Positions 4,050 to 60,684 are shown, numbered from the whole stretch's first letter. The stretch is 63,633 nt of DNA, filler included, from Pseudomonadota bacterium (GCA_043820105.1; 8 parts of 8 records of this genome joined end to end with filler, not necessarily neighbours in it), one strand, 5' to 3'. Notes: generated by a model not told the origin, from the letters alone. Made by a program: numbers and translations.

Positions 4050-4532
4050 ATGGAAACAAAATTAAATTTTATTGAGAAAATTGTCTCTGGAGCTCAAACT
4101 GGAGTTGATAGGGCGGCATTAGATGTTGCAATGAAATTAGGCATAGCTCATGGTGGATGGGTACCAAAAAATCGATTAGCAGAAGATGGTGAAATAGATA
4201 ATAAATATAATGTTAAAGAAACAAACACCTCAGATTATGCACATAGAACAATACAAAATATAATTAACTCAGACGCTACTTTGATCCTATCTAAAGGGAA
4301 AATATCAGGAGGTTCAGCATATACACTTTTTAAAGCAAAGGAGCATAAAAAGCCAGTTTTATGGTTAAAAATCAATAAAAACCAAGACAGAGCAATTGTA
4401 AAAATCTGTCAATGGCTAAATGAAAATAAACCAAAGATTCTAAACTTAGCAGGACCAAGAGAATCAAAAGAACCTGGGATTTATGATGTTAGTTTTGATT
4501 TTTTAATTCGCTTATTTTCTAACAATTTTTGA
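4050..4532 (+). CDS. SLOG-family protein (putative molybdenum carrier / YpsA-like)
   Basis: KIVSGAQTGVDRAALD, RTIQNIINSDATL, LNLAGPRES; ATG 4050 preferred over TTG 4035. Confidence 0.85.
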   Translation: METKLNFIEKIVSGAQTGVDRAALDVAMKLGIAHGGWVPKNRLAEDGEIDNKYNVKETNTSDYAHRTIQNIINSDATLILSKGKISGGSAYTLFKAKEHKKPVLWLKINKNQDRAIVKICQWLNENKPKILNLAGPRESKEPGIYDVSFDFLIRLFSNNF

Positions 4533-4576
4533 TATTTTCCAATTTATTGGTTGACAGCATAGATGCAGTGTGTTAG

Positions 4577-5206
4577 ATGCACTGTATCAATAATTATACA
4601 AATCCGGATATTATGAAGAAACAAATCAAAGCCTTAAGCTATAATGTTGTAATGTTAATAATAATTACATCCACATGGGGATGCAAGCATATTGATTTAT
4701 CTAAAATTGATAAACTAGACAGTGAAACCTTGAATGAAACTTATTTGGGATCAATCCAAACCTACAAAGTAAGCGGTGATCAGGTCACAAAATTCAGTGA
4801 AACCACGCCTGTTTCCATGACCAGCACAGGAAATGAAGGAGAAGTATTAATTTCTGGTTTAACAGGAATTGGCTCAATACCTTTTAACTCTGGAACTATA
4901 TGGAAATGCTCTGAAGCAGGGGAGCCTAAAAAAGAAACAGCAGGAACAGTTTCAGGCCTAGTGGGAAAAGCCCTTGATAACTATACAATAGAAATACATT
5001 CCTTTGCATATAGAGATGAAAGAGCTGAATTACATGACCTGCAAGTAAGCGGAACAATTGTCTTTGAAGAAAAGAAATCTGTAATGAAAACCGTTGGCCC
5101 TGAACATGTAGTCATAACAGGAGAAGTACCAGATGAAAACTGCATTCCAAAAAGACAAGACCTATCAATCATTAGATTCATAGGCGAAATTTCAACCCCA
5201 ATGTAG
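4577..5206 (+). CDS. hypothetical lipoprotein
   Basis: Signal with TWGC lipobox-like motif; true start may be the downstream MKK. Confidence 0.65.
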   Translation: MHCINNYTNPDIMKKQIKALSYNVVMLIIITSTWGCKHIDLSKIDKLDSETLNETYLGSIQTYKVSGDQVTKFSETTPVSMTSTGNEGEVLISGLTGIGSIPFNSGTIWKCSEAGEPKKETAGTVSGLVGKALDNYTIEIHSFAYRDERAELHDLQVSGTIVFEEKKSVMKTVGPEHVVITGEVPDENCIPKRQDLSIIRFIGEISTPM

Positions 5207-5226
5207 AACTTAGTAAGGGAAAAAAT

Positions 5227-6720
5227 ATGCTCTATTTCAGAACTTATAATTTAATTGTAATAAAATCATTAATAATCATTATTTTACTTTTTTCTTTTTC
5301 CTTCGTATTTACTTCATGCAAAAATAAACTAGCAGACAATGCAAGTGTAAATGAACTAAAACCATTGAAGCTAATAAAATGCGAACCAGTAGCTCCAGGT
5401 GATGGAGACGGAGATGGCGATGGTGATGGTGGTGGAGACGGTGATGGAGATGGTGACGGTGATGGCGACGGTGATGGCGACGGAGCTGGAGAAGCTATCT
5501 TTACAGGAAAAAAGCTTACATATAGCTCTGGAAATGGAGAAATACAAATAAAGGCAAGTCTTCCCATTGATCCTGCTGATGTGTCAACTGACTTAATAAT
5601 CGATGTAGATGATGCTGACATTATTAAAAATATTAGTTTTGATAATTTTAAAATAAATGATGCTGCTATAAACGAAAATGCCATAACACTTCTTGAAAAA
5701 ACCCTAAAAGATCCTGGCATTGGAAACGAATTTAATGTTGATTTTGATATCGAGCTTACAAAAAATGAAATAGCTGGAATGCTAAAAAACCTTCCTGCTG
5801 GATCTTTGGATAATGTTGATGCTGATATTATTGAAGGAATATTAAAAACAAAATTTATTTTCTCCGAAGAAATAAATCGCTTAGCAATAAAATTTGATTT
5901 AATTATCACAACTGAAAGCATGCAAGCTCACATTAACGCAATCGCTCTTGAAATCACAGGAACCTTAAACATGAGCCTAACTAAAGAAGAAAAAATAGAA
6001 GCAAAAGATAAACCAAAGCAAGAAGAAGAACCTGAACCGCAGGAAGAACCTGAACCACAAGAAGACCCAGAACCACAGGATGACCCAGAACCACAGGATG
6101 ATCCAGCTCCACCTGATCCAACACCAGGGCAAGCTCAAGAGCCAAATTATTTAATTGAAACACCTTTCACAGAACAAAACCCTGATGAAGTGTTTAATTT
6201 TGATTGTTCAAATGGCTCATCAAATCCAAATGATTTTTTAAACCAACTAACAAAAAAAGATCAGGCAGGCATTGAGATGAGCTTTTTTATATCACTTGAA
6301 TCTTTAGGCTTTTCTGGAATGGGTATTACAATAAATGAAAAAGTCCTTTTTCCAACGGATGAAAATCCTAACTTTATTGTAACAGACCTTGAACCTGAGC
6401 TTCCTGAAGCGCTTCAAGCTTATGAGCCAGTTCCTAATGCTGACGAATTTCCATCATCTTGTTTTCTAGCAGGAAATGGTGAGGTCAGAGTTTCTTTTGA
6501 AAATATGATTGTTGATGTATTGGCAAGTGGCGCGTCATTTATGAAAGTAAAAATCAATGTAAAATTATTATTACTAATAGAAGATGGTAAAATTAAGGTA
6601 TTAGCTCCTGAAGATGATTATTACAATATCTTAGCATATATAGCCCTAAATAACATGGACTTGACAGAAGAAGAAATGACAAAAATTGCTGTGGAAGATA
6701 TTGAAATAAACGACTTGTAA
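5227..6720 (+). CDS. acidic lipoprotein with (GD)n and EPEPQ(E/D) repeats
   Basis: FTSC lipobox; GD tract about 5398-5484; Pro/acidic repeats about 6020-6110. Confidence 0.75.
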   Translation: MLYFRTYNLIVIKSLIIIILLFSFSFVFTSCKNKLADNASVNELKPLKLIKCEPVAPGDGDGDGDGDGGGDGDGDGDGDGDGDGDGAGEAIFTGKKLTYSSGNGEIQIKASLPIDPADVSTDLIIDVDDADIIKNISFDNFKINDAAINENAITLLEKTLKDPGIGNEFNVDFDIELTKNEIAGMLKNLPAGSLDNVDADIIEGILKTKFIFSEEINRLAIKFDLIITTESMQAHINAIALEITGTLNMSLTKEEKIEAKDKPKQEEEPEPQEEPEPQEDPEPQDDPEPQDDPAPPDPTPGQAQEPNYLIETPFTEQNPDEVFNFDCSNGSSNPNDFLNQLTKKDQAGIEMSFFISLESLGFSGMGITINEKVLFPTDENPNFIVTDLEPELPEALQAYEPVPNADEFPSSCFLAGNGEVRVSFENMIVDVLASGASFMKVKINVKLLLLIEDGKIKVLAPEDDYYNILAYIALNNMDLTEEEMTKIAVEDIEINDL

Positions 6721-21502: not shown

Positions 21503-21602
21503 NNNNNNNNNNNNNNNNNNNNNNNNNNNNNNNNNNNNNNNNNNNNTTAATTAATTAANNNNNNNNNNNNNNNNNNNNNNNNNNNNNNNNNNNNNNNNNN
21601 NN
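21503..21602. other. artificial contig linker (also 40194-40293, 42575-42674, 46146-46245, 48447-48546, 54671-54770, 60585-60684)
   Basis: Identical N44-TTAATTAATTAA-N44 spacers with stops in all frames. Confidence 0.99.
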
Positions 21603-40193: not shown

Positions 40194-40293
40194 NNNNNNN
40201 NNNNNNNNNNNNNNNNNNNNNNNNNNNNNNNNNNNNNTTAATTAATTAANNNNNNNNNNNNNNNNNNNNNNNNNNNNNNNNNNNNNNNNNNNN

Positions 40294-42574: not shown

Positions 42575-42675
42575 NNNNNNNNNNNNNNNNNNNNNNNNNN
42601 NNNNNNNNNNNNNNNNNNTTAATTAATTAANNNNNNNNNNNNNNNNNNNNNNNNNNNNNNNNNNNNNNNNNNNNA

Positions 42676-44628
42676 GAAATTAAAGTTGATAATAATATTG
42701 CAGAAGTAAACATAATCAATAATCCAGATTTATTAATAATTACAGACTCTGAAAAACTTTACCAAGAATATAACCAAGAACAAAACGCAGTAAAAGCAGT
42801 CTTAAAGCAAACATACGCAAATGCAGAAGATGATGGTGTTGTTTATGATTTAAGCTGGTATAAAACTGATTTAGGAGTTAATAATCCATTTGCATCATTT
42901 ATCAACTATTTTGAAAAAATAATAAAGCCAAACATGGTTGATAATTCTTATTCAATAGCAGTATCCAGCTTCATAAAAGAAAGATGCGAAGATTGTGAAG
43001 ATGTAATGATTGTTGGGGATGATTATGTTGTGCCTGGGTATAGGAATGAAGTTCCCATGACAAAAGGGTTTTCAGCTTTAGGTATAGTCGACTGGTTTGA
43101 AGATAAGATTACCGTGCCTCTATATACAGATACTGGACTTATACAAAGAAAATTTGACTTTAAAATTTCGGATTTGAAGGAATTAGAAAACAGAGTCTAT
43201 TTCGTATTGCCTAATAATATGGATTCTGAATTAAAGGATGCAATAAATGCACTTGAATTAACTATACAGAACAAATTTGATGTCACAGTTAATGAAAAGC
43301 AAGGCAGTGAAATAAATTGTAATGATGTCCAGTATTTTGATAGTTTTAATGGCGCATCTCTTTTCATTATTGGAGACAGGGGAAATAATCCCTCTCTCAA
43401 ATGTTATCCTTTTATTGACTTAGAAGAAAATATGATGACAGTCCAGCCAAATATCTGGGACAGCGCATATTTATTTGATGATAGCAAATCATTTACTGTG
43501 ATTATCTATAGTATAGAAGCTAACATGACTAAAAGAGTAAACTATCTTTTTGAAAACAATATCTACTTGGATGTCCATCATAGAAGTGCAATTTTAGATT
43601 ATGCTGTAATAGGCGTAGGAACAGTTGGTGCAGGAGTTTTGGTAATAGGTGCGGTAGCAGGAGCTCCTGCAATAGTGACTGCCGCTGCTGTTGTTGGAGG
43701 AATTACTGCAGCTGCCAGCATAACTAACGAGTGCGTAATTAAGAATGAAGGAGGAGATAATTGGGGGATGTGCACTGTTGATGGTGTGTTGACTGCAGCT
43801 GGTGGTGTCATAGGTAAAGGAATTACAATGAGTGGCAGATTTGCCAAATGGATATTTGAGATAGCTGTGCCAAATAATGTTTATAAAGTTTTTATTGGAT
43901 ACGGAGATGATTTTACAAAATTTGTTAAAGAATTAATTGAAACTAATTTATTCAAAAAATTTGTTCATGGGGTAAAATCGGCTGATAATTATCTCTCAGC
44001 CATAGGAAAAACGCACTATGCAAATAATCTTGCTGAACTTAATATAAAAAATGCTGGAAAAGTTGTTCCAATAGAATTTAATAAACATATCCCATCAACT
44101 ACCGGTGATGATGTAATTCTTGTTAGAAATGCTGTTGACGATGGAATAGTAGCTATTAGAACATCTGATGGTGCTATTTTGCCTAGCAATGCACAAAAAG
44201 GTAGATTGTTTGGTGAATTTCTTGATGATGTTTCAGATGTTAGTCATGAATCAGTTATGGGGTTCAAACTCACTAAAAAATATAGCAACTATAATTTGAA
44301 GTTTTTGCATAATATTGAACCACAATATGCAGATATTGCAATGTATGATGGAGATGTAATAAAGGCATTAGGAAATACGGGAGAGGATTCTTGGAACAAG
44401 CTAGGGGGAAAAGTTAATAAGATGTTATCTAACGGATTAGATATTGATTCAGAAATTCCTTTTTATCTGGAAAAATCAGGGATTGAAATTACAGATGAAG
44501 CATTTAAGGGATTTGAAACAGCATTAACAAATGTTAAAGCTCTCAGTCATACAAAAGATACTATAACTGTTTCCTTCAATGATAAGATTACTATTTTTAA
44601 TTTCAAAAAATGGGGTGATTTAACATGA
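42676..44628 (+). CDS. 5'-truncated large protein: C25/gingipain-like subdomain, hydrophobic hairpin and orphan C-terminal domain (putative polymorphic toxin)
   Basis: Frame is open from 42676; DLLIITD and VMIVGDDYVVP motifs; Gly/Ala/Val-rich stretch; SD-like GGGGTGAT at the 3' end serves the next gene. Confidence 0.6.
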   Translation, partial: EIKVDNNIAEVNIINNPDLLIITDSEKLYQEYNQEQNAVKAVLKQTYANAEDDGVVYDLSWYKTDLGVNNPFASFINYFEKIIKPNMVDNSYSIAVSSFIKERCEDCEDVMIVGDDYVVPGYRNEVPMTKGFSALGIVDWFEDKITVPLYTDTGLIQRKFDFKISDLKELENRVYFVLPNNMDSELKDAINALELTIQNKFDVTVNEKQGSEINCNDVQYFDSFNGASLFIIGDRGNNPSLKCYPFIDLEENMMTVQPNIWDSAYLFDDSKSFTVIIYSIEANMTKRVNYLFENNIYLDVHHRSAILDYAVIGVGTVGAGVLVIGAVAGAPAIVTAAAVVGGITAAASITNECVIKNEGGDNWGMCTVDGVLTAAGGVIGKGITMSGRFAKWIFEIAVPNNVYKVFIGYGDDFTKFVKELIETNLFKKFVHGVKSADNYLSAIGKTHYANNLAELNIKNAGKVVPIEFNKHIPSTTGDDVILVRNAVDDGIVAIRTSDGAILPSNAQKGRLFGEFLDDVSDVSHESVMGFKLTKKYSNYNLKFLHNIEPQYADIAMYDGDVIKALGNTGEDSWNKLGGKVNKMLSNGLDIDSEIPFYLEKSGIEITDEAFKGFETALTNVKALSHTKDTITVSFNDKITIFNFKKWGDLT

Positions 44629-45263
44629 GTGACTTTGGTTTTAAGATTGTAGTTGAAGAAAGTGAATTTAAAGACAAATACATGAAAGTTCAGGAAATTA
44701 TTACAAAGATATTTGATGAAGCAACTAAAAAATATAAGGATGTTAGTTATGAAGATTCTTATGATGGTACAACTCCTTTAAAGTTTGATTTCTCTAAACT
44801 TAATGACCGAGGAGTTTTGCTAGACTATGAACTGCCATCATTATACAAAAACAAGATCATTATAATTTTTTATTATGAAAAATCTGATTTAGCTACCATA
44901 TCTAAAAAAGGAATCCTTAAACAATGGTTTTTGGAATTAACTAAACTAAAACCTATTGAAATTTTTGGAGGCATGGTACCTATATTTAGCAGAGAAGAAC
45001 ACTTCTATTATGTAAAAGATTTTGAAACATTTCTCCATGGAACAATTATTGAAAGATGGAGAATAGATGTATTTGGGAAACTTATTGAGAAATGGAAAGA
45101 GAATATAATTGGTAACCAAAAACTCATAAAAAAAATAAAAGATTTTCTAATTGAGGAAAATGTGATTCAGCCTGATGGTTCTTTGATTTTTATTGTCAGT
45201 GATGTGTACAATACAAAATGGAAGAAAATCTCAAAAATGATAGAAGAAGAGATAAAAAAATGA
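44625..45263 (+). CDS. hypothetical soluble protein, candidate immunity protein
   Basis: ATGA overlap with the upstream stop; no signal peptide. Confidence 0.55.
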   Translation: MSDFGFKIVVEESEFKDKYMKVQEIITKIFDEATKKYKDVSYEDSYDGTTPLKFDFSKLNDRGVLLDYELPSLYKNKIIIIFYYEKSDLATISKKGILKQWFLELTKLKPIEIFGGMVPIFSREEHFYYVKDFETFLHGTIIERWRIDVFGKLIEKWKENIIGNQKLIKKIKDFLIEENVIQPDGSLIFIVSDVYNTKWKKISKMIEEEIKK

Positions 45264-45601
45264 AAAATAAAAAAACAATTTACACAATAGCAGCAGTATT
45301 GTTATCGGCTTTTGCCATATTTTTCAGAACTATAATCTCAAGCCAAAAAATGCTTGCATTAATAGACGTCATTTTCTTGTTTGGATTATTTACACGATGG
45401 ACAGATTCAGATAAAAAAAGGAAGTACTACAAAATTATTTTTGTAATATTTGCTCTTGTAAGCCTTTTTAATGAAGGCATACTAAAAAATGAGGGTGGTG
45501 GCAATTGGGGTAATTTTGGACTTGATTTATTAGTTAAAATACTATCTGGAATAGTAATATTTAGTTACATGAGCTATATAAAAAATGCATCCAAAAAATA
45601 A
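45260..45601 (+). CDS. small multi-TM membrane protein with KNEGGGNWG loop
   Basis: ATGA overlap at 45260-45263; four hydrophobic segments. Confidence 0.7.
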   Translation: MKNKKTIYTIAAVLLSAFAIFFRTIISSQKMLALIDVIFLFGLFTRWTDSDKKRKYYKIIFVIFALVSLFNEGILKNEGGGNWGNFGLDLLVKILSGIVIFSYMSYIKNASKK

Positions 45602-46145
45602 ATTATTAATCGGAATAATTGTACTATTGATTTTATCTATTAATCTAGCCTCAGCAATAACAACTACGGAAGAAACATCTTCAGTCTCCCGTATAGTTGG
45701 TGAAAGCCCAACAGAAATGTTAAGGCAGATGCAGAGGAATGAAATAGATTTAGAACATGCAACATACTATTCTCATGACCAAGTTAATAATAAAAAAGAT
45801 AATATCTTAGCAGAGCAGTTTGGAAGTGATCTTGATAAAGACTTATTGAATTGGGATTTTGATGATGTTAAAAACTCTGTAAATGGTTTTGGAGAAAATG
45901 AATTGTTTGTATTGGAAACAGAAGGAGATGTTGATCCTTTGCATGCAAAAGCAGGAAGTGATAAGCTCTATACTAAAGACCTAAAAGACTGGCAGCTCTC
46001 CTTCGAAACAAACAACCCATTAATGTTATGGGACAGCCCTTATGCAGGCTCTTATTTGCCTAAAGAAGATACTTTTGTGTCAAGATTAGTTAGGGATTCA
46101 ACAATAATTGCTCCAACTTCATTTAGCTCTCCGCAGTTTACAAAA
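45585..46145 (+). CDS. secreted protein, possibly an inactive C25/caspase-fold subdomain, 3'-truncated
   Basis: Signal peptide (LASA); H...LYTKDL...NPLMLWDSPYAG pattern. Confidence 0.55.
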
Positions 46146-46317
46146 NNNNNNNNNNNNNNNNNNNNNNNNNNNNNNNNNNNNNNNNNNNNTTAATTAATTA
46201 ANNNNNNNNNNNNNNNNNNNNNNNNNNNNNNNNNNNNNNNNNNNNGGCATAACTGAACTTTGAAAAGTGGTGTATGAAATGCTTAATTATTCCTATCTTC
46301 CTCTAAAAGATATTTAA

Positions 46318-46854
46318 TCACTTTAATTCTTTTAAATTTTTATAAAGTTTTTCTATACTCCTTTTTACATCTGCAATATTTTTAGCTCCTGTACAAATAA
46401 CACTGCCACCGCCGAACAACAAAAATGTAACCTTGGGGTCTCTCATTCTATAAACCAAACCTGGGAATTGATTAGGTTCGTATTCCGTATTCTCTAAATT
46501 AAATGATATTTCATTCAAATTTATTTTCAAATCAAGCTTTGTTGAAACAACCATATTTACTATATTGACTTTATATTTTTCAGGAGCTTTGAATCCTATT
46601 TTTCTAATCTTTTTAACAACATTTGCTATAGCTATTTTTGCCTCTTTTGGAGTTTTAGTTCCTGTGCAAACTATTTTACCTGAAGAAAAAATCAAAGCAG
46701 CTGCCTTTGGTTGTTTTAATCTCATGACCAAACCAGGAAACTGGTTTGGTTCATACTCTGTATTATCAATATGAGACGCAACTTTGTCAAGATTTATCTT
46801 AATATCTAAAGAAGCACATGCAACAATATTCTGTATTTTTATTTTAAAAGCCAT
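46318..46854 (-). CDS. tbp: archaeal TATA-box-binding protein
   Basis: Two TBP repeats: NIVA/NMVV, TEYEPNQFPGLV, IFSSGKIVCTG / LFGGGSVICTG. Confidence 0.97.
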   Translation of the reverse strand: MAFKIKIQNIVACASLDIKINLDKVASHIDNTEYEPNQFPGLVMRLKQPKAAALIFSSGKIVCTGTKTPKEAKIAIANVVKKIRKIGFKAPEKYKVNIVNMVVSTKLDLKINLNEISFNLENTEYEPNQFPGLVYRMRDPKVTFLLFGGGSVICTGAKNIADVKRSIEKLYKNLKELK

Positions 46855-48446: not shown

Positions 48447-48546
48447 NNNNNNNNNNNNNNNNNNNNNNNNNNNNNNNNNNNNNNNNNNNNTTAATTAATT
48501 AANNNNNNNNNNNNNNNNNNNNNNNNNNNNNNNNNNNNNNNNNNNN

Positions 48547-54270: not shown

Positions 54271-54770
54271 ATCAAGCTCTTGACAATATTGACTTGTTAA
54301 GGATATTTTTGAAAAAACATTTTGGTAATATTCCTGCTTACCTTTATAAAATGTTTTTGAAAGCCCCAATGATAGATTTTCAAAATCAAAACAGTTTACA
54401 TCATCTCCTGAAACATCAATAGATATCTTGGAGGATAAAAAAGCCCTAATTATTTTTCAAGAATATTGTATTTTATGCTTGATAATTCTGCGATTCAGAA
54501 TTTTGGGATGGGAACTAATTAATTACAAACTGCCAACCTTATGAAACTGACTATTTCTGTACCGAAAATAAGCCATATTCAAGTTACATAGTTGATTTCT
54601 AGGCTTTTGAGCCTTTAAGACAAACAGATTTAAACATGATTAGGAAAAACATTATGCATCGTGTGTTATTNNNNNNNNNNNNNNNNNNNNNNNNNNNNNN
54701 NNNNNNNNNNNNNNTTAATTAATTAANNNNNNNNNNNNNNNNNNNNNNNNNNNNNNNNNNNNNNNNNNNN

Positions 54771-60584: not shown

Positions 60585-60684
60585 NNNNNNNNNNNNNNNN
60601 NNNNNNNNNNNNNNNNNNNNNNNNNNNNTTAATTAATTAANNNNNNNNNNNNNNNNNNNNNNNNNNNNNNNNNNNNNNNNNNNN

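Follow-up and report, generated by a model that had tools for sequence, protein, structure and literature searches.

The window considered here (the whole stretch of DNA analyzed, 63,633 nucleotides with filler included) consists of eight contigs in a row. One of these, the ~3.47-kb contig G000:C14 at window positions 42675-46145, is exactly the region under study and carries a candidate polymorphic toxin-immunity cassette. An earlier interpretation made from the DNA alone (hereafter, the sequence-only reading) described four overlapping open reading frames (ORFs) on the same strand, with ATGA overlaps at 44625 and 45260, and these are indeed present. ORF1 (42676-44628, plus strand), whose 5' end is open at the contig edge, codes for 650 amino acids (aa); ORF2 (44625-45263, plus strand) codes for 212 aa; and ORF3 (45260-45601, plus strand) codes for 113 aa, or for 127 aa from an alternative ATG at 45218. 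ORF4 (45585-46145, plus strand) overlaps ORF3 by 17 nucleotides (nt) and is cut after 187 aa by the contig end, a 3' truncation that had gone unmentioned. A Shine-Dalgarno-like GGTGA (44614-44618, plus strand) can be read 6 nt upstream of the ORF2 ATG, and none was found in the sequence upstream of the ORF3 or ORF4 start. Pfam and NCBIfam scans of all four ORFs produced no matches; in this work, Pfam was run on the 4 window ORFs, 8 + 5 database homologues, 13 proteins from related loci, and 7 members of the ORF2 family, and NCBIfam gave nothing above its cut-off. The ratios of nonsynonymous to synonymous substitution rates (dN/dS) are 0.09 for the ORF1 core against its homologue in locus L008 (285 codons), 0.13 for ORF3 against its L008 homologue (109 codons), and 0.19 for ORF4 against L002 (184 codons), so that these three are not chance frames, and the ORFs of the contig are genuine coding frames.

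Judged by its relatives, ORF1 is the 3' part of a family of giant, predicted secreted proteins from Woesearchaeota and Nanoarchaeota assemblies. The relatives comprise 8 protein homologues and 22 loci, 18 of them from metagenomes and 4 from reference genomes labeled Woesearchaeota, Nanoarchaeota, Nanoarchaeia, and Methanosarcinales (the last being a 1.6-kb contig). Complete members are 2236 aa (L002), 2069 aa (L009), and 2477 aa (L012) long, and a Peptidase_S8 domain is found at the start of all three of these full-length forms that were scanned. Shorter copies of 557 to 777 aa with leaders of their own are located downstream of full-length genes (in L009, L012, and L013), and orphan-type short copies or tandem arrays are seen in L006/L007, L008, L009, L012, L013, and genome G393. 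The leaders of the full-length forms and of several short relatives are hydrophobic, as judged by eye. In all members, the order of parts is the same, with a core around the MIVGDD.VVP motif followed by a hydrophobic stretch rich in Gly and Ala, a loop between two Cys residues, and then divergent sequence. ORF1 accordingly consists of a conserved core, a Gly/Ala/Val hairpin, a Cys-x12-Cys loop, a linker, and a hypervariable tip.

The ORF1 core (aa 1-305; 42676-43590, plus strand), which is assigned to the extracellular side, is truncated at its 5' end by the contig edge. Both motifs pointed out in the sequence-only reading, DLLIITD (aa 18-24) and VMIVGDDYVVP (aa 110-120), are found in the translation; the core also has a near-invariant CxxC (aa 104-107), and the MIVGDD.VVP block (aa 111-120) is invariant. 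In the AlphaFold2 (AF2) model of the core, the predicted local distance difference test (pLDDT) values are 85-97 for aa 161-310 and only 38-58 for aa 1-160, the part that holds both C25-like motifs. The segment from aa 160 to aa 312 forms a flavodoxin-like α/β domain, whose nearest folds are those of BcsB and of the cell-anchoring domain of the Methanococcus voltae S-layer protein (PDB 6yg8 and 9fsa). The flavodoxin-like fold is common to all of them, but sequence identity is 5-9%, with no relation at the sequence level, and the shared fold says nothing on function. An ESM Atlas structure search with aa 1-320 listed BcsB and S_layer_C clusters and no C25; the Atlas feature search with the same segment gave no usable match. 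In locus L003, a secreted protein of 577 aa that matches S_layer_C (Pfam E value of 3.4e-6) is encoded at positions 4240-5973, between the partner ORF and the ORF4-family gene, and echoes the S-layer-anchoring-like fold of the toxin core.

The sequence-only reading had taken ORF1 for a split gingipain/C25-like scaffold, a claim that found no support. No match to PF01364 was found in the whole of ORF1 at E values of up to 1 or in aa 1-320 at E values of up to 10, and a PDB search with a profile of 25 family members retrieved no peptidase. An alignment of 25 sequences (A3) has no His position that is invariant or conserved at the 90% level, and the sole conserved Cys residues of the core are the C104/C107 pair of the CxxC motif. 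Scanning 5 family-bearing genomes with PF01364 gave no match at E values of up to 10, in a weak run in which the control genomes were silent too. There is no gingipain chain among the 50 fold matches listed for the core model, which does not exclude such a fold.

The Gly/Ala/Val hydrophobic stretch described earlier is present and comprises ~45 residues (ORF1 aa 306-350; 43591-43725, plus strand), or aa 304-350 by hydropathy. Its 19-residue Kyte-Doolittle means exceed 1.6 for segments starting at aa 304 to 332, and its length suffices for two membrane helices with a GAP turn near aa 328-331. The block is kept in all aligned relatives. The hydrophobic hairpin is real, and the earlier claim that it inserts into a membrane is supported in part. 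The Cys-x12-Cys loop NECVIKNEGGDNWGMC (aa 351-366; 43726-43773, plus strand), delineated from the alignment, has the consensus NEC[VI]IKNxGGDNWGxC within the near subfamily; of its residues, N362 and C366 do not vary across 8 sequences, and variants of the two-Cys loop are found in divergent members. The two conserved Cys residues suggest an extracellular disulfide. The linker (aa 367-440; 43774-43995, plus strand), a weakly hydrophobic segment followed by a basic stretch (isoelectric point [pI] of 9.35), is 27-32% identical to that of L008 and 28% identical to that of L006/L007 and is common to the nearest subfamily only. Since the segment after the loop peaks at a hydropathy of just 1.05, under the transmembrane threshold and compared with 1.6-2.3 in the hairpin, a two-pass hairpin, which would keep tip and core on one side of the membrane, is favored.

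L006, L007, and L008 all cease to resemble the contig in DNA sequence at one and the same nucleotide, contig nt 1132 (codon 377), eleven codons past the second Cys of the loop. In L008, similarity is back only at ORF3, with 86% identity, so that ~1.45 kb containing the linker, the tip, and ORF2 has been swapped for unrelated DNA while the flanks on both sides are conserved. The Cys loop is thus placed, by alignment, at the conserved/variable boundary and would act as a pre-toxin demarcation motif. For a wider comparison, 27 ORFs with MIVGDD were collected, and the 16 with a complete 3' end and a downstream ORF were compared; 11 were dropped (5 truncated at the 3' end, 3 duplicates of other loci, 2 short ones lacking a tip, and 1 lacking a downstream ORF). 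The cores of these 16 relatives are alike in all 120 pairs and their last 200 aa in 8 of the 120 (BLASTP E value of <1e-3), which bears out the proposed combination of a conserved delivery region with a variable C terminus.

The tip (ORF1 aa 441-650 plus the stop codon; 43996-44628, plus strand) is the candidate toxin domain. As previously stated, the last ~200 aa of ORF1 have no recognized match, and none was found in Pfam, NCBIfam, or the PDB sequences. A full HMMER search of the tip against 1.84 billion representatives retrieved 5 proteins at E values of ≤0.001: P0011 (a 140-aa fragment, 64% identical), P0014 (173 aa), P0012 (1698 aa), P0015 (851 aa), and P0013. The last of these, a SpaA repeat protein, was judged spurious, and the other four were taken as true homologues; in P0012 and P0015, the tip domain is found at the C termini of distant members of the same giant family. 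Residues F72, E85, M88, H105, D113, D118, N127, G129, W133, G137, and K139 (tip numbering) are invariant. The AF2 model of the tip, built with five sequences (pLDDT of 75 and predicted template modeling score [pTM] of 0.73), consists of a small β unit, a long helix, three strands, another helix, and further strands. Its best Foldseek match is YaeQ (E value of 5.7e-3), and the fold lists are crowded with PD-(D/E)xK proteins, including N.BspD6I, LlaBIII, SdaI, EcoT38I, HindIII, Card1, Can2, NucS, and the CdiA-CT toxin 4g6u. E85 on the long helix, D113 in a Y-(P/A)-D motif at a strand start, and D118 are invariant in the five tip sequences. The Lys expected in a PD-(D/E)xK enzyme would fall at tip position 123, which is K, K, T, K, and Q, respectively, whereas K139 on the next helix is invariant; E85, D113, D118, and K139 therefore fit the PD-(D/E)xK pattern loosely, with the canonical Lys position not conserved. 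Of the restriction endonuclease-fold tip that had been proposed from the motif HE..G...ADIAMYD, the acidic residues E85, D113, and D118 stand, being invariant in five rows, and the fold itself is only weakly favored. On this model, the tip may be a metal-dependent nuclease of the PD-(D/E)xK type, an assignment that is possible and falls somewhat short of an even chance.

The tips of the relatives are mostly acidic (pI of 4.9-6.4 in 12 of 16), and a cationic toxin like that of the ABP system (see below) was considered and set aside on these grounds. Motifs picked out by eye in other tips, such as HEHxH (L019/L020), R-S-ExE (L013:10238), and D...EAK (L009/L010/L013), had no support from Pfam or NCBIfam and are leads only.

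ORF2 is a soluble protein that lacks a hydrophobic segment (hydropathy maximum of 0.97) and has no match in Pfam, NCBIfam, or the PDB. It would be the cognate partner of the tip and is a candidate immunity protein. Its one close homologue, P0017, is 58% identical to it; P0017 and the tip homologue P0011 are each recorded from a single contig, of 2855 bp in both cases, which is suggestive of tip-ORF2 adjacency, the adjacency itself not being seen there. The 22 related loci contain no relative of the tip or of ORF2. In a sample of 401 genomes, representing the phylum of the L002 genome, the tip is found in one and ORF2 in one, and it is the same genome, G393, where the two are side by side.

The G393 locus (L032; G393:C1:908000-927900, minus strand) contains toxins, partner arrays, a membrane protein, and an ORF4-family gene. 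It starts with a 2102-aa toxin with a homologous tip, an ORF2-like gene for 233 aa, a 126-aa orphan tip fragment, and an ORF2-like gene for 235 aa. These are followed by a 504-aa family member with a different tip and three copies of an unrelated 196-aa gene, then by an 851-aa member with a homologous tip (99% identical to P0015) and five ORF2-like genes of 232-249 aa, and finally by a 301-aa multi-pass membrane protein and a 1359-aa ORF4-family gene. Each of the three ORFs that bear the homologous tip is thus directly upstream of ORF2-like genes, which are present in 7 copies (5 + 1 + 1). The cores of the G393 toxins are only 30-31% identical to that of ORF1, so that the tip and its partner move together between very different scaffolds. 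Co-variation of tip and partner is also seen in the L002/L018 and L007/L008 pairs. The expectation that the next gene would co-vary with the C terminus is thereby supported: the tip and ORF2 are both found only in G393, where they are adjacent three times. A complex prediction for tip aa 25-210 with ORF2 scored 0.00 and was counted neither way. The 504-aa and 851-aa short toxins of L032 have identical leaders.

In 11 of the 16 toxin/partner pairs, an acidic toxin end (pI of <6.5 for the last 200 aa) is followed by a downstream ORF whose pI is ≥6.8; the opposite arrangement, with a basic tip and a less basic partner, is seen in L018 and L008. These values hint at charge-matched toxin/partner pairs.

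ORF3 is a small membrane protein with four hydrophobic segments, 83-85% identical to the one encoded at the same position in L008 (L008:2241-2570). Its aa 76-115 resemble the helix-loop-helix of the toxin (NEGILKNEGGGNWGNFG), including the KNEGGxNWG motif, with E values of 1e-5 to 1e-4 against the hairpin-loop of ORF1, L006, L007, and L008 (in a small local database). At the DNA level, no similarity of ORF3 to the ORF1 loop was found beyond two 8-mers. Given this lack of DNA similarity and the dN/dS of 0.13, ORF3 is a maintained gene, and its origin as a recombination scar or recent fragment is ruled out. These features suggest that ORF3 could be an accessory protein acting at the membrane, either as an entry block or as a docking partner of the hairpin.

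ORF4, previously described as a secreted protein, does have a signal-peptide-like leader with SRIVGESPTEMLRQMQRN; it proved to be more than a generic secreted protein, namely, the N terminus of a conserved partner family. The leader is followed by the N-domain of this second giant secreted family, and the same leader (SRIVGESPTEML) is also found at the head of some short toxin copies. ORF4 is 63% identical to the start of a secreted 1029-aa protein (L002:13698-16787) encoded downstream of the L002 toxin-partner pair. The family has 26 database homologues of 612-1764 aa, and those with a named source are labeled Woesearchaeota or Nanoarchaeota. Behind the common N-domain, its members carry various immunoglobulin (Ig)-like, CARDB, or β-helix domains. 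In the 401-genome sample, 23 genomes carry the toxin core and 23 carry the ORF4 family; both are present in 22 of the 24 genomes with either. These counts include the unpublished genomes G285, with both families, and G286, with only the ORF4 family. Among the 22 genomes with both, 18 have the ORF4 gene 2-10 kb downstream of the core, on one contig and in the same orientation, and in the other 4, the matches fall on separate short contigs. The linkage is striking, and the counts include related, nonindependent genomes. The ORF4 N-domain has no match among the PDB sequences or in Pfam, PF01364 included (the five-genome PF01364 run being the weak one with silent controls). With a language model, the clusters nearest to the first 300 aa of the L002 homologue of ORF4 are Peptidase_C25 ones, at 0.88-0.89, below the 0.9 bar.

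Leaders are also found on their own. An ORF of 52-63 aa consisting only of a signal-peptide leader with IVGESPTEMLRQMQRN is present in four loci (L009:9177-9335, L012:9736-9927, L022:1992-2165, and L002:12632-12802). It ends at a conserved A-rich junction of the AAAAATGACC type, where its TGA overlaps, in the -1 frame, the ATG of the next long ORF. That next ORF is a toxin copy in L009, reads into the toxin core in L012, and is an open frame in L002 and L022, with a PIN gene on the opposite strand in L002. An in-frame fusion of the leader is found in L006/L007. The junction could reflect translational coupling, programmed frameshifting, or a recombination scar. The PIN_2 gene of L002 (Pfam E value of 1.7e-21; L002:12954-13364, minus strand) lies antisense inside a 300-aa plus-strand frame (L002:12799-13701) that continues the reading frame of the toxin gene. 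P0008 and P0010 also read through this insert, and the sense frame of P0008 remains open over ~270 aa of it and on into the toxin core. An antisense frame of that extent staying open at ~31% GC is unexpected.

With the cores conserved, the tips variable, and the tip and ORF2 traveling together, the architecture supports a polymorphic toxin-immunity reading. The contig is likely to be the variable end of a polymorphic toxin locus of a small-genome archaeon of the Woesearchaeota/Nanoarchaeota type, and its tip is probably toxic. This reading also draws on the S8 domain of the complete relatives, subtilisin being a listed processing protease of Sec-dependent polymorphic toxins, on the cytoplasmic look of the 16 downstream ORFs, none of which reaches a hydropathy of 1.6, and on the predominance of PD-(D/E)xK nucleases, a CdiA-CT toxin among them, in the fold searches with the tip. 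The cassette is real and well supported as one of the polymorphic toxin type; its archaeal scaffold is novel, and a conserved partner gene accompanies it. In such a locus, ORF1 would make up the last 650 aa of a giant surface protein exported by the Sec route, similar to the complete relatives of 2069-2477 aa that start with the S8 domain. The Gly/Ala/Val hairpin at the end of the core would hold the protein in the membrane or insert into it, and the disulfide-type Cys loop would be the point where recombination swaps the downstream cassette, made up of the linker, the tip as the toxic payload, and ORF2. ORF2 could then serve as a cytoplasmic immunity protein that neutralizes, presumably by binding, the same type of tip arriving from neighboring cells. 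ORF3, a copy of the toxin hairpin-loop, would be accessory and might block membrane entry or dock the hairpin, and ORF4, the start of an obligate partner gene, may help display, process, or deliver the toxin.

Several observations weigh against this interpretation. The tip is acidic (pI of 5.4), which is unusual for a nuclease, and no tip or downstream ORF matches a curated toxin or immunity family in Pfam or NCBIfam. ORF1 lacks its 5' end on this contig, the first 51 nt of which agree at 49 positions with the last 51 nt of L008, a stretch that lies beyond the ORF3 homologue there. Because that end of L008 is part of a short copy that has, by eye, no signal peptide at its N terminus, the ORF1 copy may be an unexpressed orphan; the full-length form L016, 86% identical to ORF1 over aa 1-128, counts toward ORF1 as the main gene. 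Co-variation is also imperfect: the ends of the toxins in L009, L010, L013, and L021 are 49-80% identical to each other, but none of the 6 pairs of first downstream ORFs shows any similarity (Z of -0.5 to 3.2, control-like). It is the second gene that these loci have in common, a 127-aa membrane protein with four segments, unrelated to the ORF3-type family (L009:12066-12449, L010:2399-2782, L013:8456-8839, identical to L014:1273-1656, and L021:2184-2567), and this protein may be what truly tracks their tip type. The sampling is not independent, with many loci coming from few metagenomes and kin genomes. Finally, the ~3.4-kb contig is binned in a 3.8-Mb genome, which leaves the host uncertain, and the toxin family was not found in 40 relatives of this bin.

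The bin (G000) has 113 contigs, with a completeness of 92.9% and a contamination of 2.2%, and contains no second copy of the toxin or ORF4 family. The composition of the contig is typical of the bin (tetranucleotide distance in the 60th percentile of 223 pieces; GC content of 31.7% versus 32.0%), which neither favors nor counters mis-binning. The contig may have come into the bin by mis-binning from a co-occurring small archaeon or by gene transfer. The DPANN-like origin suggested earlier fits the Woesearchaeota and Nanoarchaeota labels of the relatives; the GGTGA Shine-Dalgarno motif, which had been cited for it, is not its support. Family-bearing genomes are 0.8-1.7 Mb in size. Genomes of this size are typical of host-dependent archaea.

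A bolder version of the toxin interpretation, in which the locus would be a self-contained, machine-free DPANN contact weapon with hairpin delivery, two-layer protection, and maturation by ORF4, appears rather unlikely. Under this scheme, the glycine-zipper hairpin and the disulfide loop of an S8-bearing surface protein would push the enzymatic tip across the single membrane of a neighbor, either the archaeal host or a rival. ORF2 would neutralize the tip in the cytoplasm, the hairpin mimic ORF3 would block membrane entry, and the ORF4 family, possibly a degenerate C25-like peptidase, would mature or present the toxin.

An alternative to any toxin is that the variable tip is a recognition or adhesion module on the surface of an episymbiotic archaeon, used in self/non-self or host recognition, with the downstream ORFs being chaperones or cognate ligands. 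An acidic tip, fold support for an enzyme below the noise bar, and no tip in a known toxin family would fit such a module, as would the small (0.8-1.7 Mb) genomes of the family. VARTIG, as presented in the sections of PMC8416519 cited here, provides a precedent for a toxin-like archaeal layout with a hypervariable C-terminal domain and no known toxin. However, the partners have neither a signal peptide nor a membrane segment (none of 16 downstream ORFs reaches a hydropathy of 1.6), so that they would be cytoplasmic, as expected of immunity proteins more than of surface ligands. Orphan tip fragments and tandem partner paralogues, which here form arrays of 3 and 5, are hallmarks of toxin-immunity loci, and the invariant charged residues E85, H105, D113, D118, and K139 are typical of an active site. 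All in all, a recognition module is unlikely.

It is quite improbable that ORF1 is a membrane-anchored surface protein with three passes, whose variable domain resides in the cytoplasm of the producer and forms a signaling or regulatory pair with ORF2. A third Gly-rich segment (aa 366-384) does follow the loop, the basic linker (pI of 9.35) after it agrees with the positive-inside expectation, and ORF2 is cytoplasmic, but the hydropathy of this segment, 1.05, is far below the 1.6-2.3 of the hairpin, and the two loop Cys residues point to an extracellular disulfide. Hypervariability, orphan fragments, and partner arrays would also be unexpected for a signaling tail.

Finally, a split gingipain/C25-like cysteine peptidase as the delivery scaffold is highly improbable: its likeness to peptidase C25 amounts to the hydrophobic-IIT ... 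MIVGDD..VP ... YTD pattern of ORF1, which is reminiscent of the C25 N-terminal subdomain, and to the subthreshold language-model lead (0.88-0.89), which concerns the ORF4 family and not ORF1, whereas ORF1 has no sequence-model match (none to PF01364 even at E values of up to 10, and no PDB peptidase for the 25-member profile), no invariant or near-invariant His, no conserved Cys beyond the CxxC pair, a best-modeled domain nearest to other folds (BcsB and S_layer_C clusters in the Atlas search), and a core profile unrelated to that of the ORF4 N-domain (hhalign probability of 0.13%).

The other contigs of the window carry little that bears on these genes. The eight contigs are joined at seven junctions by N44-TTAATTAATTAA-N44 spacers (window positions 21503-21602, 40194-40293, 42575-42674, 46146-46245, 48447-48546, 54671-54770, and 60585-60684), and, as the contigs are separate, genes flanking a spacer are not genomic neighbors. 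The end of the preceding contig (window 42287-42553, minus strand) encodes a Peptidase_C39-like fragment (Pfam E value of 2.5e-5) cut by the contig end; being on another contig, it implies no linkage to the toxin contig. The next contig has an ORF for 178 aa (window 46318-46854, minus strand) with two internal repeats that, by eye, resembles the archaeal TATA-box binding protein.

Polymorphic toxins are well studied in bacteria. Archaeal contact-dependent polymorphic toxins with adjacent immunity genes were reportedly predicted by Makarova et al. in 2019 (mBio 10:e00715-19), a study known here through papers citing it. Full-text searches found no description of such a Woesearchaeota/Nanoarchaeota system; the study by Makarova et al. 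may list the family. The layout of a bacterial-style weapon is seen here in tiny-genome archaea, and not on a gingipain-like protease. The family offers a compact and testable archaeal case, with a clear conserved/variable boundary, co-variation of tip and partner across very distant scaffolds, and a second partner gene that is conserved. Since Pfam has no model for any of these parts, the family would be a source of new domains for toxins, immunity, and delivery. Of the 401 genomes sampled from a small-genome archaeal phylum, ~6% carry the toxin family; how cells of this group interact with each other is little known. The hairpin and loop before the tip suggest that a toxin could cross the single archaeal membrane in the absence of a dedicated secretion machine; if the contact-weapon view is true, this would be a new delivery principle and would give access to the means by which tiny symbiotic archaea fight their hosts or keep them under control.

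Polymorphic toxin systems were defined by Zhang et al. in 2012 (PMC3482391), whose sections cited here mention few archaeal cases and list subtilisin and caspase-like proteases among the processing proteases, with subtilisin for Sec-dependent polymorphic toxins. Like the bacterial CdiA-CT/CdiI, Rhs-CT/RhsI, and Sec-dependent toxins covered in those sections, the archaeal family combines a large exported protein with a conserved body and hypervariable tips. It also has a small co-varying cytoplasmic gene directly 3', orphan fragments, and arrays of immunity paralogues. The Cys loop is comparable to the VENN or PxxxxDPxGL motifs of bacterial polymorphic toxins in being a short boundary motif, and the S8 domain parallels the subtilisin domain found in the same polypeptide in bacterial Sec-dependent toxins. 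In contrast to the bacterial systems, no TPS (two-partner secretion), FHA, RHS, PAAR, LXG, HINT, or known pre-toxin domain was detected. In particular, a CdiA/CdiB-type system is not indicated, as Pfam found no TPS secretion domain or FHA repeats in ORF1 and the full-length relatives, and the boundary is marked by the Cys loop, not VENN. The archaeal body has no Pfam model, the Gly/Ala hairpin and Cys loop come just before the tip, and the tips and partners are outside the described Tox, Ntox, and Imm families. Further differences are the near-obligatory second giant secreted partner, the ORF4 family, and the hosts, which are single-membrane archaea with small genomes.

Among archaeal systems, polymorphic toxin islands are mentioned in the cited part of PMC6393860. 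According to the sections of PMC8416519 (2021) used here, archaeal polymorphic toxins had been predicted and had not been experimentally characterized by then; the same sections describe VARTIG of the Thermococcales. As presented there, VARTIG has in common with the ORF1 family a large surface protein, likewise archaeal, whose C-terminal domain is hypervariable and recombines and whose downstream genes vary. However, its variable part is an Ig domain, whereas the ORF1 family has unrelated α/β domains after a membrane hairpin, along with partner arrays and orphan fragments.

The ABP system, consisting of the serine protease AbpP, the toxin AbpT, and the immunity protein AbpI and described in the cited part of PMC12582261, is a mechanistic analogue from Gram-positive bacteria. 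As far as that part goes, the archaeal family differs from it in having the S8 domain within the same giant protein, a 45-residue Gly/Ala hairpin instead of one amphipathic helix, and tips that are mostly acidic (pI of 4.9-6.4 in 12 of 16) and not cationic. The two are alike in combining a Sec-exported toxin that has a C-terminal enzymatic domain, which in the archaeal family would be the tip, with an activating serine protease and an immunity gene on the 3' side. In both, a hydrophobic or amphipathic element lies beside the toxin domain, and in ABP this element is required to cross a single membrane.

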